Positions 6,052 through 58,749 of a stretch of 64,000 nucleotides of DNA are shown here, in pieces. Source of the DNA: an uncultured Staphylococcaceae bacterium (GTDB lineage Bacteria > Bacillota_I > Bacilli_A > ML615J-28 > CAG-313); contig CAZDPJ010000006.1 of assembly GCA_964507405.1 (NCBI GenBank), positions 1,020 to 65,019 on the forward strand. Direction: 5' to 3'. Positions within the stretch are counted from its first letter, which is position 1; each line of letters opens with the position of its first letter. The notes under the pieces were generated by a model. The model was not told the DNA's origin, did no database searches, and saw nothing but the letters and a program-made list of their open reading frames with translations. A program made the position numbers and the translations under genes.

Positions 6052-6074
6052 AAAATCCCACCTTTCATATATAT

Positions 6075-6102: not shown

Positions 6103-6226
6103 AATGTTTTGCAAGTTTTTGTTTTTTCATGAATATTTTATTCTTTATATCATATACTATTATTGTAAGAAATGGATATATGAATATATCTTTAAATGTT
6201 TCTTACTAAAAATATAGACCACGATT

Positions 6227-8615: not shown

Positions 8616-8642
8616 ATATATCACCACTTATATTATATGTGG

Positions 8643-23824: not shown

Positions 23825-26800
23825 TTATTCCTCCTCTTTTTCTACTATATCTTCGCCAAAGAAGCTTTCAGCTTGATGGACTACTTGATTTTTTTTACTT
23901 ACTAAATTAGTAGTATTTATTACAACTATCTTTAGTTCTGGATTTTTTATAGGGGTAAGTCTAGGATATTTTATCCCCATATTATATTGACCTGCATACT
24001 CAAGTCTTTTTTCTTGCCATGTGTTTTCAGGTAAGGCAATAAAATCATAATCTTTACCAAAAGTAATTTTTAATACTTGTAATGCATTAGTGTGTCCTTT
24101 AGGTTCCATTAAATGATTACACATTGAAGCATGTGGATAAACTATTAATAATTCATTATAACCATTAGCAGTTAAAGTACCTTCTGATAAAAGTTTAGCT
24201 GTTGGTGATAATAAATGACCTACTCTATCTTCTAATTTAGACCAATTAGATAAAATATTAATTTTTTCTTCTCTACATTTTTGATCACGTGCTTGATGTA
24301 AGATTCTTTCTACAATTTTAGCATCATAAATTTTTGAAGTTTCGTCAGTTGGTTCTTCTTTTATATCACGTTGTAAAGGAGTTCTAATAACAACTGTTTT
24401 TTCATTTTTGATTAAATTAGGTTTATTAATTACTTCTTCTTTAGGAGTTTCCACCTTTACTTCAGGTTTTACTTCCTCTTTAGGTCCTTTTGCTTCTTCT
24501 ACTTCTGGTTCTCTTATAATTTCAAACGGGCTTCTACGTTTCGTTAAGCCACCATCAAGTTTGGTATTTATTTCATCAACCTTAGTTTGGATTTCTTGAA
24601 CCTTGATACTTAATTTAATACTATAGTCTTTCGCATCAGCAATTGCTTGTTGATTGTTTTCAATTAATTTGACATATTCATCAAAGGAATTATCTGGTAA
24701 TGCATTTATTTTATCATATAAATCAGTATAATTACTAATTATACTATTAGCTAAATCACTTCTTAAAGTATCTAGTTTATTTTGAATATCGTTTGTTAAT
24801 TCTTCTATTTTACTATCAATATTTGTTGTAGAATTTACATTAGATAACTTTTCTTCTATTTCTGTAAAGTCGTTTTGTAGCGATTGAACTAAAGAAACTA
24901 GTGAAATATAATTTTCATTTAATTGTGAAATTTCATCATTATCACTGCTTCCAGAATGAGTTATACCATTATATGAATTCTTTATATTACGTGCAAGTTC
25001 GTCTACACGGTTAATAACCATATCTAAATATTCTTCAATTACTTCTACTTTTTCATTTAAATTCTTAACATTATTTTTAACATCTACATCACTAGTTGAT
25101 ATTAAATTTTCTCCAGATTGTTGATTTGTAACCTCTTTTAATTGAATCATTTCTTGTTGTAAACTAGTAATCTTATTAACTAATTCAGTAGAATCAAAAT
25201 TATGTTCTTCAGGTACTACTTTCATTGAAGATACTTTTTGTTCTAATTCAGTAATTCTTGCGTCTACATCAAAAGGAACATCAGTAGTAGTTGTACTATT
25301 TGATTGAACTAAATCAATTTTTTGTTCTAATTCACTTAATTTTGTTTCTATATTAGAATAATTAGTAGTATCTGTATTTGTTGAATCTGTGTTTGATGTA
25401 TTTTTCATCAATTCAAGTTTTTGTTCTAATTCATTTATTTTGTTTTCTAATAAACTATTACTATTTGTTTCCGTAGATGGTATAGAAGAATTTGTTTTTA
25501 TAGATTCAAATTTTACTTCTAATTCTTTTATTGTTTCATTTATTTCTTGAATTTGTTCTTCTATTTTAGCAGGTTCGGCTTTATTTGCAAGTGATAAATC
25601 TTCAAGTAAATTAATCTTTGAAAGTATACTTTCTTTAAAATTTTGTGTATCTTGTTTATTAACTTCATTAATTATTTTTTTAACTTGATTATCTAGCGAA
25701 TTAACCTTAGATACTAATTCACCACTATATCCAGTACCGCCACCAAGTTTTATTGTTTCTACTTTTTCTTCTAATTTTTGAATTTGTCCTAAAATATCAA
25801 TATCTAAATTAGCACTATTAATTATTTTAATAATTCCAACCTCAAGATATATCTTAGGAGAATTTGTGAATCTAATCTTATTTTGAATATCTACAAACAA
25901 ATCAACATAATAGAATAATCTAGTTTCAGATGTTTCATGAGCAAGACTCATAAACGCTTCTTTATTATATATATATTGAGTACGAGTAGTATCTTTTAAA
26001 CTTTTATAAAGTAATAAATCTCTACAAAATTGAATTAAACTAGTTAATATTCTATTTACATCTTTACCAAGTTCTAATAAATCATTTACTCTATTTAATG
26101 CAACTTCAGTATCTTGATCATTTAGTGCTTTTATTAATTCAATCAAGTGTTGATAAGAAACATTTCCTGTAATATTATTTATATCTTCCATCGTTACTTG
26201 ATTAGAATTATATACTCTAGCTTGGTCTAAAACACTTAAAGCATCACGCATTCCACCTTCTGATGCTTCTGCGATACCTTGTAATGCTTCATCAGTGATT
26301 TTGATTTTTTCAAGTTGCGTAACTCTAATTAACATTTCGATTATTTCATGAGTTGATAATTGTTTAAAATCAAGTCTTTGACATCTTGAAAGAATAGTTG
26401 CTGGAATCTTATATGGTTCTGTTGTTGCTAGTATAAATATTACATGAGCAGGTGGTTCTTCTAATGTTTTTAAAAGTGCATTAAAAGCTGCGGTACTTAA
26501 CATATGAGCTTCATCAATGATATATACTTTTCTTTTTAGGCTGCTTGGTAGGAAATTAACTTTTTCAAGTATTTCTCGCATTTGGTCTACACCATTATTA
26601 CTTGCGGCATCAAGTTCAATAACATCTGTAGTTTCATCATTAATTATACTCTTACAACTATCACATTCATTACATGGTTCACCATTTATTGGATGTTCAC
26701 AGTTAACTGCTTTTGCGAAAATACGAGCAATTGTAGTTTTACCAATACCACGTAATCCACTAAATATATATGCATGTGATATTTTTCCTTCTAGCACAGC

Positions 26801-26896
26801 ATTCTCTAATATTTTTATAATGTGCTTTTGGCCAACAACTTCATCAAATCTCGTTGGACGGTATGTTCGATATAACGCTTTATATGCCACAGGCAC
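23825..26896 (-). CDS. dnaX: DNA polymerase III tau subunit, unusually long (1023 aa) owing to a central coiled-coil/low-complexity insert
   Basis: GLRGIGKTT Walker A, Zn module CNECDSCKS, LSRCQRLDF. The real start may be the GTG at 26888-26890 (MAYKALYR), which has better SD spacing. Confidence 0.93.
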   Translation of the reverse strand: MPVAYKALYRTYRPTRFDEVVGQKHIIKILENAVLEGKISHAYIFSGLRGIGKTTIARIFAKAVNCEHPINGEPCNECDSCKSIINDETTDVIELDAASNNGVDQMREILEKVNFLPSSLKRKVYIIDEAHMLSTAAFNALLKTLEEPPAHVIFILATTEPYKIPATILSRCQRLDFKQLSTHEIIEMLIRVTQLEKIKITDEALQGIAEASEGGMRDALSVLDQARVYNSNQVTMEDINNITGNVSYQHLIELIKALNDQDTEVALNRVNDLLELGKDVNRILTSLIQFCRDLLLYKSLKDTTRTQYIYNKEAFMSLAHETSETRLFYYVDLFVDIQNKIRFTNSPKIYLEVGIIKIINSANLDIDILGQIQKLEEKVETIKLGGGTGYSGELVSKVNSLDNQVKKIINEVNKQDTQNFKESILSKINLLEDLSLANKAEPAKIEEQIQEINETIKELEVKFESIKTNSSIPSTETNSNSLLENKINELEQKLELMKNTSNTDSTNTDTTNYSNIETKLSELEQKIDLVQSNSTTTTDVPFDVDARITELEQKVSSMKVVPEEHNFDSTELVNKITSLQQEMIQLKEVTNQQSGENLISTSDVDVKNNVKNLNEKVEVIEEYLDMVINRVDELARNIKNSYNGITHSGSSDNDEISQLNENYISLVSLVQSLQNDFTEIEEKLSNVNSTTNIDSKIEELTNDIQNKLDTLRSDLANSIISNYTDLYDKINALPDNSFDEYVKLIENNQQAIADAKDYSIKLSIKVQEIQTKVDEINTKLDGGLTKRRSPFEIIREPEVEEAKGPKEEVKPEVKVETPKEEVINKPNLIKNEKTVVIRTPLQRDIKEEPTDETSKIYDAKIVERILHQARDQKCREEKINILSNWSKLEDRVGHLLSPTAKLLSEGTLTANGYNELLIVYPHASMCNHLMEPKGHTNALQVLKITFGKDYDFIALPENTWQEKRLEYAGQYNMGIKYPRLTPIKNPELKIVVINTTNLVSKKNQVVHQAESFFGEDIVEKEEE

Positions 26897-29213: not shown

Positions 29214-30599
29214 TTAGAATTCACAGTTCTTTGGAGTTCTTGGATATGGAATAACATCTCTAATATTATCTATTCCTGTAACATACATTATTAGTCTTTC
29301 AAAACCAAGACCAAATCCTGAATGTTTAACACCACCATATCTTCTTAAATCAACATACCAGTCAAGTGGTTCTATCTTCATTTTTAATTCATTCATTCTT
29401 GCAAGAAGTAAATCTAGACGTTCTTCTCTTTGTGAACCACCTACAAGTTCACCTGCACCAGGAACTAGTAAATCTACAGCAGCAACAGTTTTTTGGTCAT
29501 CATTTAATCTCATATAGAAAGCTTTTATTTCTTTTGGCCAATTTGTTACAAAGACAGGAGCTTTAAAATGAACATCTGTTAAATATCTTTCATGCTCAGT
29601 CGCAAGGTCTTCTCCATATTCAGGTTTATTTTCAAATATATCGCCTGCATCTTTTAAGATTGTAATTGCATCATGATGTGAACATTTAACTATATGTGAT
29701 GAAACAAGTTGTTCTAATTGTTGTTTTTTACCAGGACAAACAAATTTATCAAAGAATTCTATTTCTTCTTTAGCGTTTTCTAAAACATAACTAACAACAT
29801 ATTTAACCATATCTTCAATTAAATCCATATCATCATCTAAATCCGCAAACGCAATTTCTGGTTCTATCATCCAAAATTCAGAAGCATGTCTTGTTGTATT
29901 TGAATTTTCTGCTCTAAATGTAGGACCAAAAGTATATACTTTTCCAAATGCAAGAGCATAAGTTTCTGCTTCTAATTGACCTGTTACTGTTAAGTTAACT
30001 GGTTTGCCGAAGAAATCTTTTGAATAATCAACGCTACCGCTTTTCGCTATTTTTTCTAAATCTAAAGTTGTTACTTGGAACATTTCTCCAGCACCTTCTC
30101 CATCATTTGATGTAATTAAAGGTGTGTTTACATATATGAAATTTCTTTTTTGAAAGAATTCATGAATAGCAAAAGCTAGTTTACTACGCATTCTAAATAC
30201 AGCACTAAATAAGTTAGTTCTCATTCTTAGATGTGCTTTTTCTCTTAAGAATTCTCTTGTATGTCTTTTTGGTTGAATTGGATAATCTTCAGGTGAATCA
30301 CCTTCAAGCACTACTTTTGTTGCTTTTATTTCATATGGTTGTTTTGGGTTTGGTGATTTTGTGACAAAGCCTTCTACTCTTACACCACTTCCTACTCTAA
30401 ATTTGGATATTTCTAAAAAGTTTTCTAAATTTTGTTCATACACTATTTGCGCATTATCTAAGTATGAACCATCGTTTAAGTTTAAAAAGCCAAATTCTTT
30501 TTGAGCACGATTTGTTCTAACCCATCCTTCAACAATTACAGGAGTTTCAATGTATGCTGAACCATTTGTAAAAAGTTCTTTAATACTTAGTTTTTTCAT
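29214..30599 (-). CDS. asnS: asparagine--tRNA ligase
   Basis: 461 aa. Class IIb motifs FRAENSNTTRHASEFWMIEPE and GFGLGFERLIMYVTG..IRDVIPYPRT. Confidence 0.93.
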   Translation of the reverse strand: MKKLSIKELFTNGSAYIETPVIVEGWVRTNRAQKEFGFLNLNDGSYLDNAQIVYEQNLENFLEISKFRVGSGVRVEGFVTKSPNPKQPYEIKATKVVLEGDSPEDYPIQPKRHTREFLREKAHLRMRTNLFSAVFRMRSKLAFAIHEFFQKRNFIYVNTPLITSNDGEGAGEMFQVTTLDLEKIAKSGSVDYSKDFFGKPVNLTVTGQLEAETYALAFGKVYTFGPTFRAENSNTTRHASEFWMIEPEIAFADLDDDMDLIEDMVKYVVSYVLENAKEEIEFFDKFVCPGKKQQLEQLVSSHIVKCSHHDAITILKDAGDIFENKPEYGEDLATEHERYLTDVHFKAPVFVTNWPKEIKAFYMRLNDDQKTVAAVDLLVPGAGELVGGSQREERLDLLLARMNELKMKIEPLDWYVDLRRYGGVKHSGFGLGFERLIMYVTGIDNIRDVIPYPRTPKNCEF

Positions 30600-30625
30600 T
30601 TTCTTTTTCCTTCTTTCTTATATAT

Positions 30626-30900
30626 TAAAAAGCCTTAGTAAAATAACTATTGCTTTAGTTAGTTACTAAGGACGATTATTACCGCGGTACCACCTTAATT
30701 CATAAACATATTTTGTTTATGCTCTCTTAATCCTTTAACGCAGAATATACGAACGATTCTACTAGTAATATTAATATATATTACTTTCTTTCGTTTGCTC
30801 ATAGGTGTTACTAAATAAGTTATTATTTTTAAGTTCTCACTTTCCTTAAATCACTGTGAATAATATTATACTATTTAATTCCTAATCATTGCTTTCTTTT
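30626..30900 (-). promoter_or_regulatory. T-box leader (tRNA-sensing riboswitch) of asnS
   Basis: The minus strand reads AAGGTGGTACCGCGGTAAT (T-box; plus-strand 30681-30694 accgcggtaccacc). Terminator stem 30633-30641/30664-30672 plus U-run. An AAC (Asn) triplet sits in the GAGCAAACGAAAG region expected for the specifier loop. Confidence 0.85.
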
Positions 30901-30903
30901 TGT

Positions 30904-30932
30904 ATTATATGCTTTTTTTAAATTATTGTCAA
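30904..30932 (-). promoter_or_regulatory. consensus sigma-A promoter (TTGACA-17-TATAAT) for the asnS T-box leader
   Basis: -35 reverse complement at 30927-30932, -10 reverse complement at 30904-30909. Lies immediately downstream of the mnmE stop codon (30938-30940). Confidence 0.7.
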
Positions 30933-30937
30933 ATTTA

Positions 30938-32296
30938 TTACTTACCTAAACAGAATTTACTAAATAATTCATCAAGTAAACTAGTAGTAGATGTATCTCC
31001 AGTGATTTCACCTAAATAATTATATGCATCCCTTAAATATATTTCAACAAAATCTATAAATGTATTATTATCAATTGTTTTCTTTGCTTCTTTTAATGAA
31101 TTAATTGCTTGTGTTAACTTAGATATTTGTCTTGAATTACCTAGATAAACTGAATTATTAGTTAGATCTATATCCTTTAAAACTTTTTCTGTTATTTGTT
31201 TTTCAAGTAATTCAATATCTAATTCATTATGAGCACTAATATTTAGGTAATCAAACTCTTTATAAGTATCATTTGTTCCTAAATCTTTTTTATTAAGAAT
31301 TACAATATGAGGTTTATCTTTTATTTGTTCATAAATTATTTTCTCTTCTTTTGTTAATTTACTACTACCATCTAAAACAAATAAAACTAGGTCTGCTTTT
31401 TCAATGGTTTCCCTTGATTTTTCAACGCCAAGTTTTTCAACAACATTATTTGTTTTTCTGATTCCTGCAGTATCAACCAAATTAAGGGTTATATTTCCAA
31501 TATTTACCTTAGCCTCAATAATATCTCTAGTTGTACCTGGAATATTTGTAACAATTGCTTTATTTTCCTTTAAAAGAGCATTTAAAAGTGTACTCTTACC
31601 AACATTAGGCTTACCAATAATAGCTGTAGTTATTCCTTCTTTTAAATATCTTGCACCTATTGAATCTTTTAATAACTTTTCTAACTTATCTACTATATCA
31701 TTTAATTTAGGTTCTACCTCATCATTTGTTAATTCTTCGACATCATCGTATTCAGGATAATCAATATTAACATCGATAACCGCAATAATATCTAACAATT
31801 CTTGACGATATTCTCTAACTAAATTATATATTTTTCCGTTAATTCCTTGATTTGCAAGTTTAATTGCTGTTTTATTTTCAGCATCAATTATATCCATTAC
31901 CGCTTCTGCTTTAGTTAAATCAATACGACCATTTAAAAAAGCACGTTTTGTAAATTCACCAGGTTCAGCTGGTCTTGCGCCTAAATTAACTAAATTCTCA
32001 TAAATTAAATTAGTAACAAATAATCCACCATGACAGTTAATTTCTACAACATCTTCTTTTGTATATGTTTTAGGAGCTCTAAATACAGACACTAATACTT
32101 CATCTAATATTTCTTTTTTATTATTGTCATATATATGTCCATAATTTATTGTATGACTTTTTACCTTACATAAATTAGCCCCTTTAAAAACTTTATTAAC
32201 TAATTCTATTACTCCATCACCACTTAATCTAATTATGGAAATAGCACCTTTTGAATAAGCAGTTGATATACCAATTATCATATCTTCTTGTGACAT
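30938..32296 (-). CDS. mnmE: tRNA modification GTPase MnmE
   Basis: GKPNVGKSTLLN, DTAGIR, C-terminal FCLGK. The start is probably the ATG at 32294-32296, 8 nt after GAGGAG. The track ORF starts at a GTG at 32305. Confidence 0.93.
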   Translation of the reverse strand: MSQEDMIIGISTAYSKGAISIIRLSGDGVIELVNKVFKGANLCKVKSHTINYGHIYDNNKKEILDEVLVSVFRAPKTYTKEDVVEINCHGGLFVTNLIYENLVNLGARPAEPGEFTKRAFLNGRIDLTKAEAVMDIIDAENKTAIKLANQGINGKIYNLVREYRQELLDIIAVIDVNIDYPEYDDVEELTNDEVEPKLNDIVDKLEKLLKDSIGARYLKEGITTAIIGKPNVGKSTLLNALLKENKAIVTNIPGTTRDIIEAKVNIGNITLNLVDTAGIRKTNNVVEKLGVEKSRETIEKADLVLFVLDGSSKLTKEEKIIYEQIKDKPHIVILNKKDLGTNDTYKEFDYLNISAHNELDIELLEKQITEKVLKDIDLTNNSVYLGNSRQISKLTQAINSLKEAKKTIDNNTFIDFVEIYLRDAYNYLGEITGDTSTTSLLDELFSKFCLGK

Positions 32297-32501
32297 ATTC
32301 ATCACTCCTCTTATAATATATTATACATTATTTTTACAAAGTTCCATTCGTTTTTACTTTATTTTTTTCTATGTAAACATTTTCAAAATAAAAGGTATTG
32401 CAAAAAAAATAATAAAATGATATAATTATTTTGCTCTTTGTAGTAGAAATCCTACCTGTTGCAAAGAGAATCCTTAATTTTTATTCAATTCTCGTTTCTT
32501 T

Positions 32502-34678: not shown

Positions 34679-35024
34679 CTTTTTCTCCTTTTGGTTGTCT
34701 TAATAATATCGTCTTTATACAATATAATAAATCATTTTTTAAAATTTCATATTTAACACATTTACTGATTGGTTTTATTACAACCACCATATCAACGTTT
34801 TTAATATTTTTTATTTCATTAATAAAAATACTTCTAGCGATTCTTTTTGCTTTATTCCTCTCTACCGCTTTTCCATATTTCTTAGATACTGAAAAAGCGA
34901 TTTTAGGAACTATTTCTTCTTTATATTGATAATAAACGATATAATTATCACGATAAATTCTTTGTCTTTTTTGAACGATTAAGGCTATATCATGGTTTTT
35001 CTTTAATCTATTTATTTTTTTCAT
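34659..35024 (-). CDS. rnpA: RNase P protein component
   Basis: 121 aa. FSVSKKYGKAVERNKAKRIAR. Confidence 0.92.
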   Translation of the reverse strand: MKKINRLKKNHDIALIVQKRQRIYRDNYIVYYQYKEEIVPKIAFSVSKKYGKAVERNKAKRIARSIFINEIKNIKNVDMVVVIKPISKCVKYEILKNDLLYCIKTILLRQPKGEKDEKITK

Positions 35025-35103
35025 TTTAACCTCGTCAAAAATAAAGAGACCACTTCCATTTATAAATGACAGAAGTGGTCCAAGAATATTATTTAATTTA
35101 TTA

Positions 35104-35238
35104 TTAAGCGCTTAATACAGCGCGACCTTTTAAACGTCTGCGGGCTAAAACTTTTCTTCCGCCAACTGTTGCCATACGAGCACGGAAACCATGTGTCTTA
35201 CTATGTTTACGTTTGTTAGGTTGGTATGTTCTTTTCAT
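35104..35238 (-). CDS. rpmH: 50S ribosomal protein L34
   Basis: Below the ORF-track cutoff. My translation is [54 protein letters not shown] upstream. Confidence 0.97.
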
Positions 35239-35272
35239 TATTAGCACCTCCAATTAAAAACCATGCTAAAGT

Positions 35273-35301
35273 ATTTTACTATATTTTAATTAATTTGTCA
35301 A
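35273..35301 (-). promoter_or_regulatory. putative rpmH promoter (TTGACA-17-TAAAAT)
   Basis: -35 reverse complement at 35296-35301, -10 reverse complement at 35273-35278. Confidence 0.55.
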
Positions 35302-35342
35302 TTCTTTTTACTTGAGAAAAAAATAGAGATAATAAATTATCT

Positions 35343-36371
35343 CTATTTTGCATTCAAATCTATTTTTATTTTTCTTACACTTGATGTTCCATCATCAAAT
35401 TTAACTACAGTCTTAACGAATAAAGTTACAACATCATATACTTCATCAATTTTATATGAACTTAAGATTGTATCAGTAGATGCTGCTTTATTTAAAGCAC
35501 TACCTGCACAAGTATAGAAACGAACATATTCACTAAATATTTTGTGATCACAGTCTTTAGTATTTATTTTACCAAACACTTCAACTGAGAAATTTTCAAT
35601 TTTTTTATCTCCAAGATAAGTTTGGTTTAATTCTGTTTCAAAATTAAAACTATCTTTCTTGATAGAATCTTTTTTTGATTCTTCAGTTGCTTTAGTGTAT
35701 TCAATATTTACATCAATTGCTTCAGATTCATTCACTATATTGTCATCATTACCTAATAAACCATTTTCATATTTAGAAAAATCTTCAGACTCATAATCAG
35801 TAACTTTAAATTCTGTTTTTAATTCTTTGTTTATTTCTTCATTATCAATAACAATTGTATATTTAATATTTACATAAAGTTTTAAAGGAATATTATCAAC
35901 AACAGTTTCTTCTTTTGTTGAACTATCTACTGTAACAGATTGTTTAAAAATACTACTTGATATAAAAGAACTTGAACTTAATTGTGAATAAGTTGAACTT
36001 TTAGAAATTGAATAAGTAGATGAACTTTCATCAAACTTAATTTTACCTTTTCTATTAACTCCAGCAATAAAAGGTTTAATGTTTTTAATTTCATAACCTT
36101 TTGCGGCATCTTGTTTTTCTAAAAATCCTCTTACTTTATAAGTTGTTGATTCAAAATCAGATTCATTTTCTAATGTAGACTTTCTTTCTTCATAAACTCT
36201 AACAGTTAATTTCACATATTCATCATATGATTGTTCACAATATCCATCTAGTACTTTAGATTTTGTTGTTGAATTTAGTATTAAAATAGTAACAACTCCT
36301 ACTAAAGCAGTATATAACACAAGAATTAATATTTTTATTTTTGTACTTAGGGCTGATAATTTGCTTAACAT
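35343..36371 (-). CDS. hypothetical N-terminally anchored extracytoplasmic protein lying between oriC and rpmH
   Basis: 342 aa. One N-terminal TM (ILILVLYTALVGVVTILIL). Ser-rich patch. Its own terminator hairpin at 35316-35348. I recognise no family. Confidence 0.5.
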   Translation of the reverse strand: MLSKLSALSTKIKILILVLYTALVGVVTILILNSTTKSKVLDGYCEQSYDEYVKLTVRVYEERKSTLENESDFESTTYKVRGFLEKQDAAKGYEIKNIKPFIAGVNRKGKIKFDESSSTYSISKSSTYSQLSSSSFISSSIFKQSVTVDSSTKEETVVDNIPLKLYVNIKYTIVIDNEEINKELKTEFKVTDYESEDFSKYENGLLGNDDNIVNESEAIDVNIEYTKATEESKKDSIKKDSFNFETELNQTYLGDKKIENFSVEVFGKINTKDCDHKIFSEYVRFYTCAGSALNKAASTDTILSSYKIDEVYDVVTLFVKTVVKFDDGTSSVRKIKIDLNAK

Positions 36372-36470
36372 ATTTACACCTCACACTTTGAGTATTCTAT
36401 CACAAGGTTTCGAAATTTGCAAGTTAAAAGAGTAGAAAGTTTTACTCTGTCCTTAATATATAGAAAAAAG

Positions 36471-36542
36471 TTATCCACTTATCCACATGTGGATAACTAT
36501 CACTACTTATCCACTTTTTTTCCACATTATTAATGTGGATAA
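36471..36542. promoter_or_regulatory. oriC upstream DnaA-box cluster (5 boxes)
   Basis: TTATCCACt 36471-79, TTATCCACA 36479-87, TGTGGATAA 36488-96, TTATCCACt 36507-15, TGTGGATAA 36534-42. Confidence 0.9.
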
Positions 36543-36622
36543 CTTAAAAAAACCTTTTTTATCTTATTTTTTGTATTTTTTACTTCTTTTTGTTATAATG
36601 TAATGTAAAGAGGTGATGTTTA

Positions 36623-38005
36623 ATGGAAATTGATAATTCAATTTGGTTAAAAGTTAAAGAGAAACTGAAAGAGACTATAGACGAACCAACATACCTTGCT
36701 ACTTTTGACGAAATTAAAGAAATTTATAAAGAACAAAATGGATACATTTATTTACCTGTATCAACTACTTTAATAAAATATCGTATTGAGAAATTCTATT
36801 TAGCAAGAATGAATGAGATTTTAAGTGAATTTGTCTCTGAAAAGATGTCTTTTAAATTAATTACAACAGCTGATATAGCGGTTGAAAAAGAAAATCAAGA
36901 GAAAAAAGCATTTTCTGCTCCTGATAAAGCGGATAAATTCAAGAGTAGAACATTAAGACCAGAATATACTTTTGAAAACTTTGTTACTGGCGAAGCCAAT
37001 AGAGAAGCTTTTACTTTTTCTATTAAGGTTGCTGATTCTCCACATGTAACAGTAAACCCTTTGTATATTTTTGGAGATGTTGGTTTAGGAAAAACACACC
37101 TTATGACGGCAATTGGCCATTATATTTTAGATAATAACATAAACGCTAATATTATTTTCACTACTGCACAACAATACACAGAAGATTATTTTAATGCAAC
37201 TAACAGAAATAATAGAAATTCTGACACATTAGATTCTTTTAATAATTTCTATCGTTCTGCAGACGTGCTATTAGTAGATGATATTCAATTTTTAAAAGAT
37301 AAAGTAAAAACTCAAGAAGAATTTTTTAAGTTATTTGAATATTTACATGAAAATAATAAACAAATTGTAATTACTTCTGATAGACCAGCCTCAGAACTTG
37401 AAATTATGGATCGTCTTAAATCTAGATTTAGTTGGGGAATCCCTGTTGATATTAAAAAACCTAATTTTGATTTGAGAAAAACTATTTTAAAAAAGAAATT
37501 AGCTTTCCTAATTAGTGATCCGAATGTTGTCCCTGATGATGTTTTAACATTTATTGCTGAAAATTTTCAAGAAAACGTAAGAGAACTAGAGGGAGCTTTA
37601 CGTCGTTTTGTTTCGTATTGTGTTGCTTTTAACATAGAATTTACGTTAGAAAACGCTCAAGCTTCATTGAATTCGATTATTTCTAAAGATAAACAAGTAG
37701 TAAATGTTAGTGATTCTGTTATAATTGAAAAAATAAAAAACGTTGTTGCCACTTATTTTAATATTAATATTAAAGATTTAGTGGGAACATCTAGAAAACA
37801 AGAGATTGCTTACGCAAGAATGATAACAACTTATCTTCTTAGAAAGGAATTAAACCTTCCTTTAAAGAAAATAGGTGAGTTATTAGGTGGTAGAGATCAT
37901 GCAACTATCGCTCATGCTATTGAAAAAATAACAAATTCAGTAGAAACTGACTCTTTAGTTAAGCAAGATGTGGAAGTTTTAATTCAAAAAATCAAGCAAA
38001 ATTAG
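36623..38005 (+). CDS. dnaA: chromosomal replication initiator DnaA
   Basis: 460 aa. NPLYIFGDVGLGKTHL, LLVDDIQFL, C-terminal DHATIAHA. Confidence 0.97.
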   Translation: MEIDNSIWLKVKEKLKETIDEPTYLATFDEIKEIYKEQNGYIYLPVSTTLIKYRIEKFYLARMNEILSEFVSEKMSFKLITTADIAVEKENQEKKAFSAPDKADKFKSRTLRPEYTFENFVTGEANREAFTFSIKVADSPHVTVNPLYIFGDVGLGKTHLMTAIGHYILDNNINANIIFTTAQQYTEDYFNATNRNNRNSDTLDSFNNFYRSADVLLVDDIQFLKDKVKTQEEFFKLFEYLHENNKQIVITSDRPASELEIMDRLKSRFSWGIPVDIKKPNFDLRKTILKKKLAFLISDPNVVPDDVLTFIAENFQENVRELEGALRRFVSYCVAFNIEFTLENAQASLNSIISKDKQVVNVSDSVIIEKIKNVVATYFNINIKDLVGTSRKQEIAYARMITTYLLRKELNLPLKKIGELLGGRDHATIAHAIEKITNSVETDSLVKQDVEVLIQKIKQN

Positions 38006-38008
38006 AAG

Positions 38009-38066
38009 TTATCCACTTATCCACATAGCTAATAATAAATATAATATACAAATATAAATAATAAAT
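38009..38066. promoter_or_regulatory. oriC downstream element: two DnaA boxes followed by TAG/TAA trinucleotide repeats and an AT-rich putative unwinding element
   Basis: TTATCCACt 38009-17, TTATCCACA 38017-25, then TAGcTAATAATAAATATAATATAC.... Confidence 0.7.
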
Positions 38067-38078
38067 AGGGAGGATTTT

Positions 38079-39203
38079 ATGAAATTTATAATGAATCGAG
38101 AACTATTGTTATTAACTTTACAAAATGTTTCTCGTGGATTATCAGATAAAAAACCATTTCCTGTGCTTACAGGAATACAAATTAATGTAGAAAAACACAA
38201 AATTGTCTTTGTTACTACAAATAAAGACATTTCTGTTCAAATAGTTTTAGAAGAAAATAATGATGTAGTGATTGAAGAAACTGGAGCTTGTGTAGTTCCT
38301 GGTAAGTATTTTTTAGAAATAGTTAAGAAATTAGAGGGTAAAGAAGTTGAATTCACATTGTTTGAATCAACAACAATTAAGATTTTATCAGACCGTTCAG
38401 ACTTTACTTTAGTGACTTATGATAATTCTTTATTCCCTGTAATTAACTTTGAATTAGAAGAAGAGCCAATTCATTTAGATGCTCAAATGTTAAAAAATGT
38501 GATTAAACAAACTACTTTTGCGGCTGCAACATCAGAAGCAAGAATCGTTCTAACTAGTGTAAATTTCAAATTTTTTGGTAATAAATTGGAAATTACCGCA
38601 ACCGATTCGTTTAGGTTAGCAAGAAAAAATATTGAATTTGAAGATAATTTCAATTCTCAAATAATCAATATTCCAAGTAAATCATTAGATGAATTCTCTA
38701 AAATAATAGAAGATTCACATGAAGATGTCGAGTTAATAATCAAAAACAAAACTGCGATTTTCAAATATCGCAATGTAACTTTCATGACAAGATTAGTTGA
38801 AGGAACGTATCCAGACACATCAAGTTTGTTCCCTAAAGACCAAATGTTGACAGTTAAATTCAATAGAAATGAGCTACTTTCTGCAGTGGATAGAGCCTCA
38901 TTATTTACAAGTTCAGAGAATTTAAGCATTGTAAAAATGACTCTTACACCTAAAAACTCAGTTGAAATTTCATCAAACTCTACTGAAATAGGTAAAGTTG
39001 TAGAGGAAATCTATCCATTAGAGGTTTCAGAAAACCTTAATTTCCAAATTGCATTTGGAACAAAAAATCTAAGCGATGCACTAAAATCCTTTGAAAGTCA
39101 AAGTATTCTTATAAAGTTCACTGGAGAGATAAAACCAGCCATAATTGTGGGTGAAAAAGAGCAAGATTTGATACAATTGCTTCTCCCGGTTAGAGTGTTC
39201 TAA
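38079..39203 (+). CDS. dnaN: DNA polymerase III beta sliding clamp
   Basis: 374 aa. Position after dnaA. PVLTGIQI..., ATDSFRLA, LLLPVRV. Confidence 0.95.
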   Translation: MKFIMNRELLLLTLQNVSRGLSDKKPFPVLTGIQINVEKHKIVFVTTNKDISVQIVLEENNDVVIEETGACVVPGKYFLEIVKKLEGKEVEFTLFESTTIKILSDRSDFTLVTYDNSLFPVINFELEEEPIHLDAQMLKNVIKQTTFAAATSEARIVLTSVNFKFFGNKLEITATDSFRLARKNIEFEDNFNSQIINIPSKSLDEFSKIIEDSHEDVELIIKNKTAIFKYRNVTFMTRLVEGTYPDTSSLFPKDQMLTVKFNRNELLSAVDRASLFTSSENLSIVKMTLTPKNSVEISSNSTEIGKVVEEIYPLEVSENLNFQIAFGTKNLSDALKSFESQSILIKFTGEIKPAIIVGEKEQDLIQLLLPVRVF

Positions 39204-39250
39204 AATAAAGGTTAAAAACCGCTTATTTAAAGAAAGTAAATAGATAAAAT

Positions 39251-39277
39251 AAAAAAAGCCTAATTTAGGCTTTTTTT
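39251..39277. terminator. bidirectional terminator between dnaN and the convergent parA-like gene
   Basis: aaaaaaagccta-att-taggcttttttt. Confidence 0.75.
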
Positions 39278-39382
39278 ATTTCTTATATTTCGTTAAATAA
39301 ACCATTAAATCCACTGATTTGATAGCTTTATGAATAATTTATCATGTAGTTAGTTAAAAATTCGAAAAACAGGGCTAAATGA

Positions 39383-40168
39383 CTATAAAACCATTGATTT
39401 ATATACTTCTGTAAGCTCTTTTCTTATCTGATCACGGTTCTTTTGATGAAATTTATCTTTCATTTGGTGGTTATCAAAGACTGAAACACCTTCGGCTTGT
39501 AGGTTTTTGATAACTGACTTGTCATTTATAGGTGGGGTAACAATAGCTTCTGGAGTTTGAATTTTAGCTCTTTCTGTTAGTTGTTTTAGGCAAGCTTTAG
39601 GGGCAAGCTTAACAGGGTGGTATCCGATAGGAATTACGTACTTAATTTTGCTCAAATTGATGTCAGAATCAACAAAATATTGAATTGTATTCGAATAACC
39701 CTCCAAACCAAGAGCATCAAGCCCTACTGCAAGAAGAATAGAATCGCTTAAGTCTAATAATATTTCACTTAAACGACTGCTCGAAGGCGGGAAATCGATA
39801 AAAATATAATCAAAATATTTAGTAAAATCTTGAATTAAAGCCCTTAAATGCTTCTCTTCGGTTCTTTTTAACGTTAAATTTAGTGAAAGTCTGTCTGTAT
39901 TTAAGGTTTTCATTAAATACATATTTATTCTTGCCTCAAAAACTACATCTTGAGGCTTTTTTTCTCCAACAAATAAATGTTCGAAGAAATCATCGTCATG
40001 ATCTGTTACATAATGCTCTGCACCGAATATTTTAAAAATACTGTTTTGGTCATCAGCACTAATAACTAAAACTGTTTTACCTAATGTTGCATAATAATGT
40101 GCAAGGTATCCAAGGAATGTTGTTTTACCTACACCACCTTTTTTACAAAAGCAAGAAACAATTGGCAT
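39383..40168 (-). CDS. small ParA/Soj-superfamily partition ATPase (type Ib-like, no N-terminal HTH)
   Basis: 261 aa. MPIVSCFCKKGGVGKTT deviant Walker A with signature Lys. YIFIDFPPS Walker-B-like. SD GGAGG lies inside the end of the upstream gene. Confidence 0.85.
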   Translation of the reverse strand: MPIVSCFCKKGGVGKTTFLGYLAHYYATLGKTVLVISADDQNSIFKIFGAEHYVTDHDDDFFEHLFVGEKKPQDVVFEARINMYLMKTLNTDRLSLNLTLKRTEEKHLRALIQDFTKYFDYIFIDFPPSSSRLSEILLDLSDSILLAVGLDALGLEGYSNTIQYFVDSDINLSKIKYVIPIGYHPVKLAPKACLKQLTERAKIQTPEAIVTPPINDKSVIKNLQAEGVSVFDNHQMKDKFHQKNRDQIRKELTEVYKSMVL

Positions 40169-40542
40169 TAATATTTACCTCCTTCTCTAGATAATTTTTC
40201 TCTACAAGCTTCTTCAATGAATTCTGAGAACATTTTGCCGTTTGTTGCACAGAAAATCTTAATACTTCTACGTAATGAAACATCCATAGTTGCGGTATAC
40301 TTTTCTTTTGGTCCATCCATTTGTGGAATGTATTGAGGTTTTGGTTGTTTCCTTGTAGTTCTTGGCGCTTGTTGCACTGGTTGTTGATAATAATAGCTTT
40401 CTTGTTGTGATTGTTGAATCACTTGAGGTTGAATTTGAGGTGTTGGTTCTTGAACTACCTCTTCAACCACTTTTTCTTCCTCTTCTTCGACTGTAATTTG
40501 TCTATCAAAGGGATTAACTCTCTTTTTTACTTGATCGTTCAT
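40168..40542 (-). CDS. ParA partner candidate: basic N-tip, acidic and Gln/Pro-rich disordered linker, C-terminal ribbon-helix-helix-like domain
   Basis: 124 aa. C-terminal KYTATMDVSLRRSIKIFCATNGKMFSEFIEEACREKL fits a beta-alpha-alpha pattern. RBS AGGAGG. Stop overlaps the parA-like start (TAATG). Confidence 0.6.
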   Translation of the reverse strand: MNDQVKKRVNPFDRQITVEEEEEKVVEEVVQEPTPQIQPQVIQQSQQESYYYQQPVQQAPRTTRKQPKPQYIPQMDGPKEKYTATMDVSLRRSIKIFCATNGKMFSEFIEEACREKLSREGGKY

Positions 40543-40566
40543 ATTAAACCTCCTATTTACACAACT

Positions 40567-40594
40567 ATTATATCATTATAAAAATTAAAGTCAA
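40567..40594 (-). promoter_or_regulatory. putative promoter of the RHH-parA operon (TTGACT-16-TATAAT)
   Basis: -10 reverse complement at 40567-40572, -35 reverse complement at 40589-40594, about 25 nt upstream of the AGGAGG RBS. Confidence 0.6.
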
Positions 40595-41321
40595 CCGATT
40601 TGCAATATTTACTTACATACATACAACCATAAAAACAGATAGCATTCTTTTGCTATTAATAAAAAATATAAAAATATTAAAAAATAAAATTAAAACGGAA
40701 ATTCGTTTCAAAAATCATTTCAAAAATCAAAAATGAGGCTAAAAAAGCCCATAAAAATAAATTTTTGAAAAAAAAGTGAAAAATTACTAATCCCCCGGGG
40801 GGTAAAATCGAAATTTTTGAGTTTTTTGTAGACCACAGAAAACGCAGAAAATTAGAGTATGTATTTATGTAAAACCATCAAACCATTTTTCTGTATCCAG
40901 AGAAAGTACGATTTTTGGTGCGAGTTGTGGAAAAGTGCCACTGGTATTCAAAAAACCAAAGCTGTAAGCTAAAAAAGTTTTAAGATTTAAGAAAAATATG
41001 TAGTAAAATTATAATTTAAAAGAATAATAACAAAACATACTTTTTAGATAAAAATAAAATTGAACAAAATTGTTATAAATCAAAATAAAAATATTAGAAT
41101 TTAAAATAAAAATATAGTATTTATTTTGAAAACAAAATTATTTCTACATAACATTGTTTGAATATTAAAACAATAATTTGTCTATATTGTTTTAATGTAA
41201 AACGAGCCTAATCATAAAAGGTTTTAAAATATATATAAAACAATTAGAATGTAAAAGTTTAATAAAGCAACGTTGTTTGAATTAAAAAGTAAAAGTTTTA
41301 ACAAACAATAAAGATTGATTT

Positions 41322-41512
41322 AAATAGATATGTATGGAAAGATAAAAATAAAACAATATTTACGTATAATAATATAACAATAAGTAAATAAATATGTATC
41401 ACAAATAAATAAAACTGTATAGTAATAATTATTGTAATAATTAAATAAATATATATGTATAAAAATAAATACAATTGTAAGTAAAGCAATACAAAAATAA
41501 ATATTTTTGTAT
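41322..41512. repeat. degenerate iteron-like array: six copies of AAATA(A/G)ATA-N0-5-TGTA
   Basis: Copies start at 41322, 41386, 41403, 41443, 41463 and 41495. The sequence is low-complexity, so significance is uncertain. Confidence 0.4.
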
Positions 41513-41557
41513 GGGTGTAAATATAGAAATAATAGTTTGTTATTCAAAATAATAAAA

Positions 41558-41626
41558 AAATGGTCAAAAACACTAAAAAACCACCTTAAAAAGCCAAGCA
41601 TAAAGTTAAAATTAAATGGTCAAAAA
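41558..41626. repeat. exact 13-bp direct repeat AAATGGTCAAAAA, two copies 56 bp apart
   Basis: Copies at 41558-41570 and 41614-41626. The reverse complement contains TTGACC. Confidence 0.5.
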
Positions 41627-41830
41627 ATCATAATTATATATTATATATATAAATAAGGAATATACTTATTTATGTATAAAAAATGGATTAAAAATTACAA
41701 AAAACTCAAAACGTCCGTTTTTTGTTCGGAAATTTTCGCTTGACAAAAAAACTTTTGGATTATTAAAAAAAGCTTATTTTTTGATAAAAATTAGCTTTAA
41801 AAATCATGACTAAAGTCATAGGCTTTTTAC

Positions 41831-41859
41831 TTGTAAAAAAAGGGCTTTTGTGGTATAAT
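41831..41859 (+). promoter_or_regulatory. putative yaaA-gyrB-gyrA promoter (TTGTAA-17-TGgTATAAT)
   Basis: -35 at 41831-36, extended -10 at 41851-59. Confidence 0.6.
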
Positions 41860-41888
41860 TATAATGTATGAGAATAGAGGTGTTGCAC

Positions 41889-42104
41889 ATGAACAAAGAA
41901 GTGCTTATAAACACCGATTTTATTACCCTAGGACAGTTCTTAAAGTATGCTGGAATTATTCAAAATGGGGGTCAAGCAAAGGCTTTTTTAGCTGAAAATG
42001 AGGTTAAAATCAACGAAATTATTGATCAAAGACGTGGAAAAAAGCTTTTTGAGAATGATAAAATCGAAATTAATGGGCAAAAATATGTTATTTGTAAGGA
42101 ATAA
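41889..42104 (+). CDS. yaaA: S4-domain RNA-binding protein YaaA
   Basis: MNKEVLINTDFITLGQFLKYAGIIQNGGQAKAFL.... ATG at 41889, 8 nt after GAGG. The track ORF starts at 41868. Confidence 0.85.
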   Translation: MNKEVLINTDFITLGQFLKYAGIIQNGGQAKAFLAENEVKINEIIDQRRGKKLFENDKIEINGQKYVICKE

Positions 42105-42151
42105 TGTTGAAAAAGTAATAAAAACATGTAAAAAAGAAGGAGGTTTTATTA

Positions 42152-44077
42152 ATGGCTGAGTTAAATGATAAAACTAATTACGATTCGAGTAGTATACAAG
42201 TCCTTGAAGGCATGGAAGCAGTAAGAAAAAGACCTGGTATGTACATTGGTAGTACTGGACCTAGAGGATTACACCATTTAGTATGGGAAATTGTAGATAA
42301 TTCTGTCGATGAAGCACTAGCAGGCTTTTGTAATGAAATTGATGTCGAAATATTGCCAGATAATATAATTTGTGTTACGGATAATGGGCGTGGTATGCCC
42401 ACAGATATTCATCCAAAAACACATGTTTCAGCAACAGAAACCATCTTTACTGTGCTTCATGCAGGTGGTAAATTTGACAGTAATACATACAAAGTTTCTG
42501 GTGGTTTACACGGTGTAGGTGCATCTGTTGTTAATGCTTTAAGTGAATGGCTTGAGGTCTATGTTAATCGTGGTGGTAAGAAATTTTATCAAAAGTATAG
42601 AAGGGGTGTTCCTGAAACGCCACTTCAAACTATCGGCGAGACAAACATAACTGGGACAACTGTTAGGTTTAAGGCTGATGGAGAAATCTTTAGAGAAACG
42701 GTAGAGTATGATTATGAGACATTAAGACAAAGACTCCAAGAACTAGCTTTCTTAAATAAAGGCATTAAGCTTAATGTTACTGATTCTAGAAATCCAGACA
42801 ATATCAAAAAAGAAGAATATCATTATGATGGTGGTATTTCTGAATATGTTAAATATTTGAATAGAAATAAAAAACCATTGCACAGTGATGTTATTGTTGT
42901 GGATGAAGAAGTTGAAGGAAGCGTAATTGAAATAGCCTTCCAATATACAGAAGACTATAGTTGTGTTATAAGATCCTTTACTAATAATATTATTAACCAA
43001 GAAGGTGGAACTCATGAAGAAGGTTTTAGAACCAGCCTTACTCGTATTCTAAATAACTATGGTAAAACGTCTAATATCTTTAAAAAAGACGAAATATTTA
43101 CAGGTGATGATGTTCGTGAAGGACTAACTGCTATTGTTTCTTGTAAGATTAGTGACCCTCAATTTGAAGGACAAACTAAAACTAAACTTGGAAATACAGA
43201 GGTTAGAAGGATTGTTTCACAAGCTATGTCTGATAAATTAGAAGCCTATTTGTTAGAAAATCCTGCTACTGCAAGACTCATTGTCGAAAAAGGTGTTCTT
43301 GCTTTAAGAGCTCGTATCGCGGCAAAAAAAGCTAGAGAAGCAACGAGAAGAAAGAGCCCTTTAGATATGCTTGACTTTGCTTCAAAACTATCAGATTGCC
43401 GTACAAAAGACCCTGCACTTGCTGAAATGTACATCGTCGAAGGTGACTCTGCCGGTGGATCTGCTAAGCAAGGCAGAGATAGTTATTACCAAGCTATCCT
43501 CCCTCTACGTGGAAAAGTATTGAATGTTGAAAAAGCTTCAGCTCATAAGATTCTTAGCAACAACGAAATTATTTCAATTATTCAAGCAATAGGCACAGGA
43601 ATAGAAAAAGAATTCAAAATTGAGAATGCTAGATATCATAAAATAGTCATTATGACCGATGCCGATGTCGATGGTGCACATATTAGAATATTGTTATTAA
43701 CATTCTTCTATCGCTTTATGAGACCTCTTATTGAAAATGGTTATGTTTATGTTGCACAACCTCCTTTATATAAGATTCAAAAAGCGAAAAAGATCAATTA
43801 TGCATATAGTGATGAAGAAAAAGATGAAATTGTAAATGAAATGAGTAAAATTCCTGGAAGAGTTGATATTCAACGTTATAAAGGTCTAGGAGAAATGAAC
43901 GCAGAACAATTATGGGAAACAACAATGGACCCTAAATATCGTACTTTATTACAAGTTACGATGGAAGATAGTGAAAAAGCAGCAAAAATATTTGCGGATT
44001 TAATGGGTGAAGATGTAGAACCAAGACGTAGATTTATCGAAGAAAATGCTGTCTTTGTTCAAAATTTAGACGTATAG
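42152..44077 (+). CDS. gyrB: DNA gyrase subunit B
   Basis: 641 aa. [42 protein letters not shown]. Confidence 0.98.
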
Positions 44078-49684: not shown

Positions 49685-50011
49685 CTATTCTTGGTAAGGA
49701 TATTCATAATTTAATTCTTCATCAAAAGTTACATAAGATAAATAGATTGTTAATAATAAATATCTTATACCTGTTTGAGGGTCTTTTAAAATAATATGGT
49801 CTTTACCAGCTGCCTCAATTGTTCCTTTAAAGATTTTAGAACCCCATTGGCTTCCTTCAAAACTCATATATACAGTTGCCAGTTTTCCACGGTTAAGACG
49901 TAAAATATTTTCAATATATGATTGTTCTAAAAAAGGATTTTGAGTTTGTACTTGTGGTTGAAATCCATATGGATTATAAAAACCATAAGGTTGTTGATAG
50001 TTAATTGTCAT
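49685..50011 (-). CDS. gerQ: spore coat protein GerQ
   Basis: 108 aa. Q/P/Y-rich N-terminus, then SYIENILRLNRGKLATVYMSF...GTIEAAGKDHIILKDP. Adjacent to the cwlJ-like gene. Confidence 0.75.
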   Translation of the reverse strand: MTINYQQPYGFYNPYGFQPQVQTQNPFLEQSYIENILRLNRGKLATVYMSFEGSQWGSKIFKGTIEAAGKDHIILKDPQTGIRYLLLTIYLSYVTFDEELNYEYPYQE

Positions 50012-50059
50012 ATAAGCCTCCTTGATAATATATATGTATTTAGTTTTTAAAATATGTTA

Positions 50060-50479
50060 TTAATAACAATTTTCTGATTCTACTGGACTATAAAAACAAT
50101 GAGATTTGTACTTTCCAGTATTCCACTGGCCATACCACTGAGCACTACAATCAGAGTTTGATGAATTATAAAACCAAAGTGCTCGAGAGGCAGGATGAAA
50201 TTGTTCACCTTTTATTACTTTACGAGCTAATCTTATATCTTTTTGTCTTGCTGCTTGATAAAAGTATGAATATAATGTTGATTCAAAACCGCCAGGATGT
50301 TGATAGACCATTTGTTCTACGGTTGAAATATTAGTAAAATCTAAACATTTCGCACGAACCCGGTTAACACCAACATTTCCAACCATCAACATTCCAAGTT
50401 CACCCTCAGCTTCAGCTTCTGCTCTCATTAGTCTAGCTAATAATTTAACTTCCTTTTCGTTACATGCAATAATTCCCAT
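50060..50479 (-). CDS. cwlJ: spore cortex-lytic cell-wall hydrolase, CwlJ/SleB family
   Basis: LLARLMRAEAEAEGELGMLMVGNVGVNRV...QPGGFE.... ATG at 50477-50479. Confidence 0.8.
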   Translation of the reverse strand: MGIIACNEKEVKLLARLMRAEAEAEGELGMLMVGNVGVNRVRAKCLDFTNISTVEQMVYQHPGGFESTLYSYFYQAARQKDIRLARKVIKGEQFHPASRALWFYNSSNSDCSAQWYGQWNTGKYKSHCFYSPVESENCY

Positions 50480-50581
50480 AATACACCTCATTAAATAATA
50501 TCTCTAAATTTTTAAAAATATGCTAATAAAATGCTAAAAAATTAAAATTAGGTTATAATATTATCAATAAAGGTGATTTAA

Positions 50582-58218: not shown

Positions 58219-58749
58219 ATGAAAGCAACAGGAGTCGTTAGAAGAATAGATGATTTAGGTAGAATTGTTCTACCAAAAGAACTAAGAAGAACAATGAGAA
58301 TCAAAGAAGGAGATTCACTAGAGATATATATAGATGGTCTTGATCAAATAATGTTAAAAAAGTATTCTCCAGTTCAAAGCCTAAATGAATTTGTTAAAGA
58401 ATTTGTTGAAAGTGTTTATGCATCTAATAAATTAGATATAATAATAACAGATAATGAAAGAGTAATTGCATGCGCAGGTAACTTTAAAGTAAACTTAGTG
58501 GGCAAAAAAATATCAATGAGATTAGAAGATAAATTAAACAAGAGACAAACTCAAATTATTGATATGGGTGAAAATTTTGAAATATGTGATAATATTGAAA
58601 ATAATAGACCATTAATTATCAGGCCAATAAATGTATATGGTGATATCTTAGGCTGCGTTATTATTTTAGGTGAGACGGGAATTACATCGGTTGAAAAATC
58701 AATTGCTGAATTTAGTGGAACCTTTATTAGTAAATATTTAGAAAGTTAG
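58219..58749 (+). CDS. spoVT: stage V sporulation protein T (AbrB-type N-domain + GAF-like C-domain)
   Basis: 176 aa. MKATGVVRRIDDLGRIVLPKELRRTMRIKEGDSLEIY. Sits in the mfd-spoVT synteny as in B. subtilis. Confidence 0.88.
   Translation: MKATGVVRRIDDLGRIVLPKELRRTMRIKEGDSLEIYIDGLDQIMLKKYSPVQSLNEFVKEFVESVYASNKLDIIITDNERVIACAGNFKVNLVGKKISMRLEDKLNKRQTQIIDMGENFEICDNIENNRPLIIRPINVYGDILGCVIILGETGITSVEKSIAEFSGTFISKYLES

Follow-up and report, generated by a model that had tools for sequence, protein, structure and literature searches.

The chromosome-origin region examined here carries a minus-strand operon of a ParA-family ATPase gene and a small gene for a predicted ribbon-helix-helix (RHH) partner, located between dnaN and yaaA in a 64,000-nt stretch of contig CAZDPJ010000006.1 (GenBank assembly GCA_964507405.1, an uncultured Staphylococcaceae bacterium; hereafter the window). 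With a probability of about 0.6, the pair and the iteron-bearing spacer beside it constitute a partition or positioning module of type Ib design that lies near the origin, is inherited vertically and has become fixed in the chromosome of a clade of uncultured, low-GC Bacilli. The usual ParB is probably not the partner with which this clade positions or segregates its chromosome origin. In its make-up the module is a bacterial chromosomal type-Ib-like ParA/RHH/iteron system, a variant on a known design.

The segregation of bacterial chromosomes is seen as the task of helix-turn-helix (HTH)/CTPase ParB proteins acting on parS, and the RHH proteins known to bind centromeres come from plasmids and archaeal SegAB. 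A literature search found no paper describing an origin-linked ParA/RHH/iteron module. The module would show a bacterial lineage running origin positioning with a different adaptor class, as a second case beside Borrelia ParZ. It is compact and clonable (two genes plus a 1.3-kb spacer), and it offers a predicted recognition code, in which the K-x-T-x-T strand of the partner would read TAYRTA at an 8-bp pitch. The hosts, uncultured Bacilli related to Mollicutes, are abundant in gut, rumen and digesters, and we know of nothing reported on their cell cycle.

Conserved position of the gene pair beside dnaN

The pair was confirmed as two minus-strand open reading frames (ORFs), convergent with dnaN. 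As in the preliminary description, nucleotide 40168 was common to both genes (40166-40170 is CATTA on the plus strand and TAATG on the coding strand), and the parA Shine-Dalgarno sequence, AGGAGG, lay inside the last codons of the small gene. The promoter given for the operon was also recovered as the top sigma-70-type match within 39150-41950, and its hexamers were kept in close relatives.

Relatives were collected by a scan of one genome per GTDB species. They were found in 125 species, and the best 80 of these 125 (52-96% ParA identity) were fetched; with earlier metagenome loci added, 81 non-redundant loci from at least 80 species were compared. The relatives are metagenome-assembled genomes from gut, rumen and digesters, with labels that include Bacilli, Mollicutes, Acholeplasmatales, 'Staphylococcus sp. 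CAG:324' and 'Coprobacillus sp. CAG:698'. The small gene was immediately upstream of parA in 81/81 loci. Convergent dnaN stood beside parA in 80/81 (the exception was a truncated contig), and in every locus with enough flank the pair was followed by a non-coding gap of 0.7-3.2 kb and then yaaA. Position and order were conserved in every relative examined, and this synteny bears out the earlier suggestion of a module domesticated at the origin.

Identities across the loci ranged from 52-96% for ParA, 39-82% for DnaN and 43-78% for DnaA, so that the ParA range is the highest of the three. ParA identity followed that of GyrB, DnaN and DnaA (Spearman rho 0.85-0.88), which argues for vertical descent of the pair. 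The window has neither an integrase nor a tRNA gene, att features were not found, and the composition at the locus showed nothing anomalous. Against the 72,556 plasmids of PLSDB, the ATPase gave five weak matches only, all to its N-terminal half and at 30% identity or less, and no relative of it was found in IMG/VR. The small protein had no match in the same plasmids or in 50,697 phages.

Two features of the position were revised. The preliminary description had placed the pair inside the oriC core, where recF normally sits. DnaA-box clusters were located upstream of dnaA (36471-36542) and in the dnaA-dnaN interval (38009-38025), with TAA-trio-like, AT-rich DNA after the second cluster; the cumulative GC skew has its minimum at about 36-37 kb. 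Because the pair is downstream of dnaN and outside both clusters, it is origin-proximal, 3-4 kb from oriC, and not within the core. As to recF, no RecF match was obtained anywhere in the window, as had been reported; yet the relatives have the order dnaN-parA-small gene-gap-yaaA-recF-gyrB (parA and the small gene on the opposite strand), and yaaA-recF-gyrB was kept in 51 loci. The gene was missing between yaaA and gyrB only in the window (41889-44077), in its closest relatives (loci L010-L013) and in L045. Since most relatives carry both the pair and recF, the pair does not replace recF, and the absence of recF is a separate, recent, lineage-specific loss or relocation.

The ParA ATPase and its RHH partner

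The larger product had been described as a small ParA that has a deviant Walker A motif and lacks an N-terminal HTH. The motif, KKGGVGKTT, occupies residues 8-16, no N-terminal HTH domain or extension was present, and Pfam AAA_31 was matched at E 1.6e-21 (77.5 bits; cutoff 27). Walker A, DDQNS and FDYIFIDFPP were invariant in the ATPases of 38 relatives, and the catalytic motifs were intact. The AlphaFold2 (AF2) model was a compact 260-aa fold with a predicted local distance difference test score (pLDDT) of 92, in which no membrane-targeting or extra domain was seen. Deviant Walker A, switch/Walker B motifs and fold together place the protein in the ParA/MinD superfamily.

Foldseek searches with this model returned Soj (B. 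subtilis, H. pylori, T. thermophilus), ParA 8RAY and McdA as top matches, with template modeling scores of 0.72-0.78 to Soj and McdA; McdA, MinD, MipZ and FlhG scored similarly. In a profile search of solved structures, H. pylori Soj was matched at E 2.6e-11. Delta of pSM19035 was at Foldseek rank 19 (29 bits by profile), SegA (7DUT) at rank 30 (24 bits to the ParA profile) and ParF at rank 49. The protein fell below the cutoffs of all curated ParA equivalogs (for ParA_partition NF041546, 52.9 bits against 180; for PrgP NF041283, 41.6 against 400). As chromosomal Soj proteins and McdA rank above delta and ParF among its solved relatives, the ATPase is not plasmid-type by descent. It is type Ib in architecture only, and the earlier label 'plasmid-type' holds for its architecture but not for its ancestry.

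The family was discrete among 1.84 billion representative proteins: there were only three near-full-length matches (42-49% identity), and the next ones, at about 30% identity, scored no higher than generic ParA proteins. Remote ParA relatives of about 40% identity (L089, 569-1677; L091, 982-2584) also have an overlapping partner gene upstream. One of their partners shares the N-terminal motif of the small protein, here as HKKRQNPL, and the other is a 265-aa protein with two RHH-like repeats. As these pairs are not beside dnaN, they fall outside the origin-linked family; they may be sister or ancestral modules.

The small protein consists of an N-terminal KKRVNPF (residues 6-12), a linker (about 17-78) and an RHH domain (about 80-119), in keeping with the basic tip, low-complexity linker and C-terminal RHH fold proposed for it. 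The N-terminal motif, as K-R-x-N-P-F, was found in 80/81 relatives. The linker is acidic and Glu-rich with Gln/Pro, variable in length and predicted to be disordered (residues 20-80 at low pLDDT in AF2). The strand K[YF]T[AS][TV]M was present in 81/81 relatives, and in the window protein K-Y-T-A-T-M alternates polar and hydrophobic residues. The profile of the family matched the solved RHH protein SvtR (2KEL) at E 4.3e-7. In the AF2 model, residues 80-120 (pLDDT 87-96) form an extended strand and helices at 87-100 and 104-119, and the Foldseek neighbors of this domain were nearly all RHH proteins (CopA(SO), SvtR, Arc, ParG, PutA; 0.6-1.5 Å over 34-38 residues). By profile and predicted structure, the C-terminal domain is an RHH domain.

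Pfam Omega_Repress gave a weak match to the window protein (17.8 bits; cutoff 33.3), and a few family members carried precomputed PF07764 (Omega_Repress) or PF21432 (56B_RHH) annotations. An hhalign comparison with an omega sequence put the two RHH helices in register at a weak E of 0.0094, and is a lead only. The small-protein profile retrieved no SegB chain from the solved structures at E up to 10.

Iterons and conserved blocks in the spacer

Spacer ORFs in the window were low-complexity and spurious only, and the spacers of relatives had no gene calls. Structured RNA was considered and rejected: in an Rfam search at a permissive threshold over 35000-42200, the spacer had no match, and three chance-level matches all fell on the dnaN terminator. 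A role of the spacer as a DnaA-box part of oriC was rejected as well, as it holds a single 1-mismatch box, at 40926. A generic repeat finder returned weak AT-rich families only, and the iterons emerged from cross-species k-mer enrichment.

Enrichment over 58 non-redundant spacers picked out ATACATAAATAC-type words. Inspection of the flanks of TACATA showed a further TAYRTA hexamer 8 bp away on both sides. Distances between TACATA/TATGTA pairs were 8 bp in 246 cases, 16 bp in 110, 24 bp in 62, 32 bp in 59 and 40 bp in 42; spacings were almost exclusively multiples of 8 bp, with a minor series offset by 4, and both orientations were used. Hexamer density was 7.3/kb in the spacer and 0.6/kb elsewhere in the locus, and was higher in the spacer in 58/58 species. 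The two-unit, 14-bp pattern was observed 543 times across species (9.5 expected). Sites peaked within 100 nt upstream of the small gene and were otherwise dispersed through the spacer, with contiguous arrays on or beside the promoter in many or most species.

The window spacer contains 10 TACATA/TATGTA hexamers (2.5 expected). All 7 two-unit sites of the 64-kb window fell inside it, against 0.09 expected, and none of 1000 simulations reached 7. The four contiguous units of the array end 4 nt upstream of the operon -35 hexamer, and their block, TTGCAATATTTACTTACATACATACAACCATAAA, was kept in L010-L013 amid saturated surrounding DNA.

Nearer to yaaA, GGAATATA(C) followed by iterons was found 185-214 nt from that gene in about 27 species, and the corresponding window block (41640-41680) was fully conserved in L010-L013. 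The wider arrangement here is ATAAGGAATATAC and two iteron units, followed about 50 nt later by AAACGTC...TTTTTTGWTAGGAAA (41640-41745). A 23-aa ORF in the conserved segment 41668-41740 was rejected as the cause of conservation; in an alignment read by eye it was present in L010/L011 and not kept in L012/L013, which places the conservation at the DNA level.

The palindrome CCCCCGGGGGG was found in at least 13/58 species, mostly 220-370 nt upstream of the small-gene ATG; the sequences on its two sides (AAAxTTAyTAA and TAAAATC) are conserved as well. Another DNA-binding protein could recognize it, and it may or may not belong to the module. A 27-nt inverted repeat, 85% complementary (40804-40830/41696-41722), encloses 865 nt in the most AT-rich part of the spacer; it was not obviously conserved among close relatives.

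Table 1. Coordinates of the operon, its spacer elements and the adjacent genes in the window
Feature	Position	Strand	Details
dnaA	36623-38005		
dnaN	38079-39203		
Bidirectional intrinsic terminator, common to dnaN (+) and parA operon (-)	39246-39282	.	Separates dnaN from parA
ParA-family ATPase gene	39383-40168	-	261 aa, start MPIVSCFCKKGGVGKTT
Small gene, centromere-binding-protein candidate	40168-40542	-	124 aa, start MNDQVKKRVNPF
AT-rich non-coding spacer, candidate centromere region	40543-41867	.	1325 bp, 20% GC, TAYRTA iterons in 8-bp register
Small-gene/parA operon promoter	40594..40567	-	TTGACT-16-(TG)TATAAT, 11/12
Four-unit array, putative operator/centromere core	40599-40630	.	Minus strand TATGGTtg TATGTAtg TAAGTAaa TATTGCaa
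GC palindrome in 20% GC spacer	40790-40801	.	CCCCCGGGGGG
Two-unit iteron site	40858-40871	.	TATGTAttTATGTA
Two-unit iteron site	41321-41334	.	TAAATAgaTATGTA
Two-unit iteron site	41385-41398	.	TAAATAaaTATGTA
Two-unit iteron site	41446-41459	.	TAAATAtaTATGTA
Conserved block	41640-41680	.	ATATAAATAAGGAATATAC, then two iteron units (TACTTAttTATGTA at 41663-41676)

Known systems, alternative readings and neighboring genes

The anatomy of the module resembles that of delta-omega, ParF-ParG and SegAB, and together with the Borrelia precedent this favors a partition or positioning reading. The ATPase is a small ParA with no N-terminal HTH, and the partner has a C-terminal RHH domain and a flexible N-terminal tail, as in type Ib systems. 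A type Ib centromere would have its counterpart in the 8-bp-phased arrays beside the promoter, to which the partner is proposed to bind. By sequence, the proteins belong to none of the curated type Ib families (NF041546, NF041283, Omega_Repress), and the pair is chromosomal in all 81 loci, not on a plasmid or mobile replicon.

ParF-ParG of TP228 also has an RHH partner, and ParG was among the Foldseek matches. The operator and centromere of TP228 consist of tetramer boxes with 4-bp AT-rich spacers, again an 8-bp period. The differences from the module are the plasmid location, the far shorter ATPase ParF and the order parF-parG, and no sequence relationship beyond the fold was detectable. The ParF/ParG design cited in the preliminary description is matched in anatomy but not in gene order, which here is partner first. 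The ParG N-terminal tail gives an arginine finger to its ATPase (cited in PMC8682754). Archaeal SegB, likewise an RHH protein, stimulates the chromosomal ParA SegA through an unstructured N-terminal tail (PMC8682754). Like the module, SegAB of the Sulfolobus chromosome couples a chromosomal ParA-type ATPase to a site-specific RHH protein, with sites just upstream of the operon (PMC8682754). It differs in being archaeal and in the order segA then segB, and SegB has extra helices and palindromic sites, not 8-bp-phased arrays; sequence homology was not detected, and the resemblance is one of architecture only.

Delta-omega of pSM19035 is alike in its small ParA and in its RHH dimer with a flexible N-terminal tail. 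Omega, at once repressor and adaptor, binds a centromere of contiguous 7-bp repeats, which may face either way and overlap promoters, and activation of the delta ATPase takes at least 4 of them (PMC9499535). The period differs (8 bp, TAYRTAnn, here; 7 bp, WATCACW, there). The present module is chromosomal and vertically inherited, with the partner gene first and overlapping parA, and its ATPase is only distantly related to delta. For bacteria, Borrelia offers a chromosomal ParA near oriC and a precedent for partner replacement, as a centromere-binding protein that is not a ParB, ParZ, controls ParA there by means of a conserved N-terminal peptide (10.1101/2022.07.05.498848). There is no report of ParZ as an RHH protein, and for SMC loading Borrelia still has ParB-parS.

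With Soj-Spo0J-parS the module shares its nearest solved ATPase relatives (Soj) and an origin-proximal location. The partner, in contrast, has no ParB HTH/CTPase domain, and the locus is dnaN-yaaA, not rsmG-noc-soj-spo0J. The combination of a ParB partner with parS near oriC, typical of chromosomal ParABS, was not found in the window or the loci. No ParBc domain was detected in any window ORF of at least 100 aa, the window contained no ParB domain, no second ParA and no parS, and the 16-bp parS (motif TGTTNCACGTGAAACA) was absent from 88 fetched origin-proximal loci. The supplement of PMC10868615 does not list soj, spo0J or parB. It is conceivable, though less likely than not, that the clade replaced ParB-parS altogether, so that the RHH protein on 8-bp iteron arrays by dnaN would be its sole chromosomal centromere system, with a Soj-descended ATPase that switched partner. 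Such chromosomes would be the first in bacteria to be segregated by a type-Ib-style machine, which would parallel archaeal SegAB.

In the mechanism proposed for a partition module, the RHH protein would bind as dimers to the TAYRTA iterons with their 8-bp phasing. Dimers on the four-unit array next to the -35 hexamer would autoregulate the operon, and those on the dispersed sites over the 1.3-kb spacer would build a partition complex some 4-5 kb away from the DnaA-box clusters. The flexible K-R-x-N-P-F tail would contact nucleoid-bound ParA-ATP dimers and stimulate ATP hydrolysis. Sister origin regions would then move apart on a ParA gradient.

Several points weigh against this reading. Adjacency to dnaA-dnaN fits replication control equally, type I partition operons do not usually place the partner gene first, and a canonical Soj-Spo0J-parS system may be encoded elsewhere in the genome. 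No cultured representative was among the best 80 matches. The window's own arrays are short, degenerate and mostly of two units; consensus scoring of four-unit arrays in the window alone gave a single match (21/24), which is nearly uninformative. As these arrays are short and the two-unit pattern was defined after the data had been seen, the case for the iterons rests on the cross-species statistics. The iterons are tied to the RHH protein by adjacency and co-conservation only.

The same position could reflect control of replication or transcription. The RHH protein would repress its own operon and perhaps the divergent yaaA-(recF)-gyrBA, and ParA would act on DnaA and tune initiation; Soj regulates DnaA in B. 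subtilis, and Soj proteins are the nearest solved relatives of the ATPase. The invariant position after dnaA-dnaN and divergent from yaaA-gyrBA in all loci, the operator-like array abutting the -35 hexamer, and the conserved iteron-containing block at a fixed distance upstream of yaaA all agree with control. Autoregulation, however, needs one operator and not dozens of phased sites over 0.7-3.2 kb, the fixed block lies upstream of the yaaA promoter (41831-41859) by some 150 nt or more, and a conserved tail of the ATPase-activating type on a DNA-bound partner is a hallmark of cargo-coupled ParA systems. We consider control unlikely as the explanation; it is compatible with a partition module and not exclusive of it.

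ParA/MinD ATPases serve many positioning roles, and the similar Foldseek scores of McdA, MinD, MipZ and FlhG would also suit a use of the origin region as a landmark for division-site or forespore placement, with a logic like that of MipZ, Noc, PomXYZ or RacA. The window encodes YabG, SpoVG, GerQ, a SleB/CwlJ-like hydrolase and SpoVT, and the conserved GC palindrome in the spacer is unexplained. But the ParA has no visible membrane-targeting or extra domain, and the module also occurs in organisms labeled Mollicutes or Acholeplasmatales, some of them predicted to be non-sporulating (PMC10868615), so that a landmark function, though partly compatible with a partition module, appears quite improbable. 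The alternative kept in the preliminary description was a stranded plasmid remnant, here taken as a leftover of an integrated plasmid or other mobile element that serves no purpose in the chromosome. The combination of small ParA, RHH partner and iterons is best known from plasmids, and the ParA-partner pairs of about 40% identity in L089 and L091 are at non-origin sites. Far from being strain-specific with integrase or att remnants, the pair keeps the same position in 81/81 loci, its ParA tracks housekeeping divergence, and all motifs are intact. Synteny, co-divergence and the lack of close plasmid, phage or IMG/VR homologues, with no integrase, att, tRNA or compositional signal, led us to reject the remnant, which is extremely unlikely.

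Among the neighboring genes, yaaA matched TIGR02988 (91.8 bits; cutoff 84.75) and is followed by gyrB and gyrA; its start was corrected from 41868 to a probable 41889, which gives 71 aa and agrees with the call in L001. Between rpmH and dnaA, 35343-36371 (-) encodes 342 aa with a membrane anchor at the N-terminus; neither Pfam nor NCBIfam matched this protein, and relatives have a fast-evolving 307-359-aa gene at the same rpmH-dnaA position (24-54% identity where detectable). The mnmE-mnmG-rsmG block was out of its usual place, as noted before: mnmE is followed by asnS instead of mnmG-rsmG(-noc-soj-spo0J) (29214-32305), and the Bacillus-type block left of the origin is broken up. The dnaX ORF (23825-26896, -) encodes 1023 aa, of which the best full-length family models cover about residues 4-500 only, leaving a long, uncharacterized C-terminal extension. 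The sporulation-associated genes named above (SpoVG, YabG, GerQ, SleB/CwlJ-like, SpoVT) lie at 5797-6114, 7845-8627, 49685-50491 and 58219-58749, and are present though relatives are often labeled Mollicutes/Acholeplasmatales. Large predicted surface proteins are encoded at 2380-5574, 13221-16535, 16597-18144 and 60733-63186, with DUF6273, atrophied Ig, Listeria-Bacteroides repeats with a staphylococcal nuclease domain, and NAGPA among their domains.

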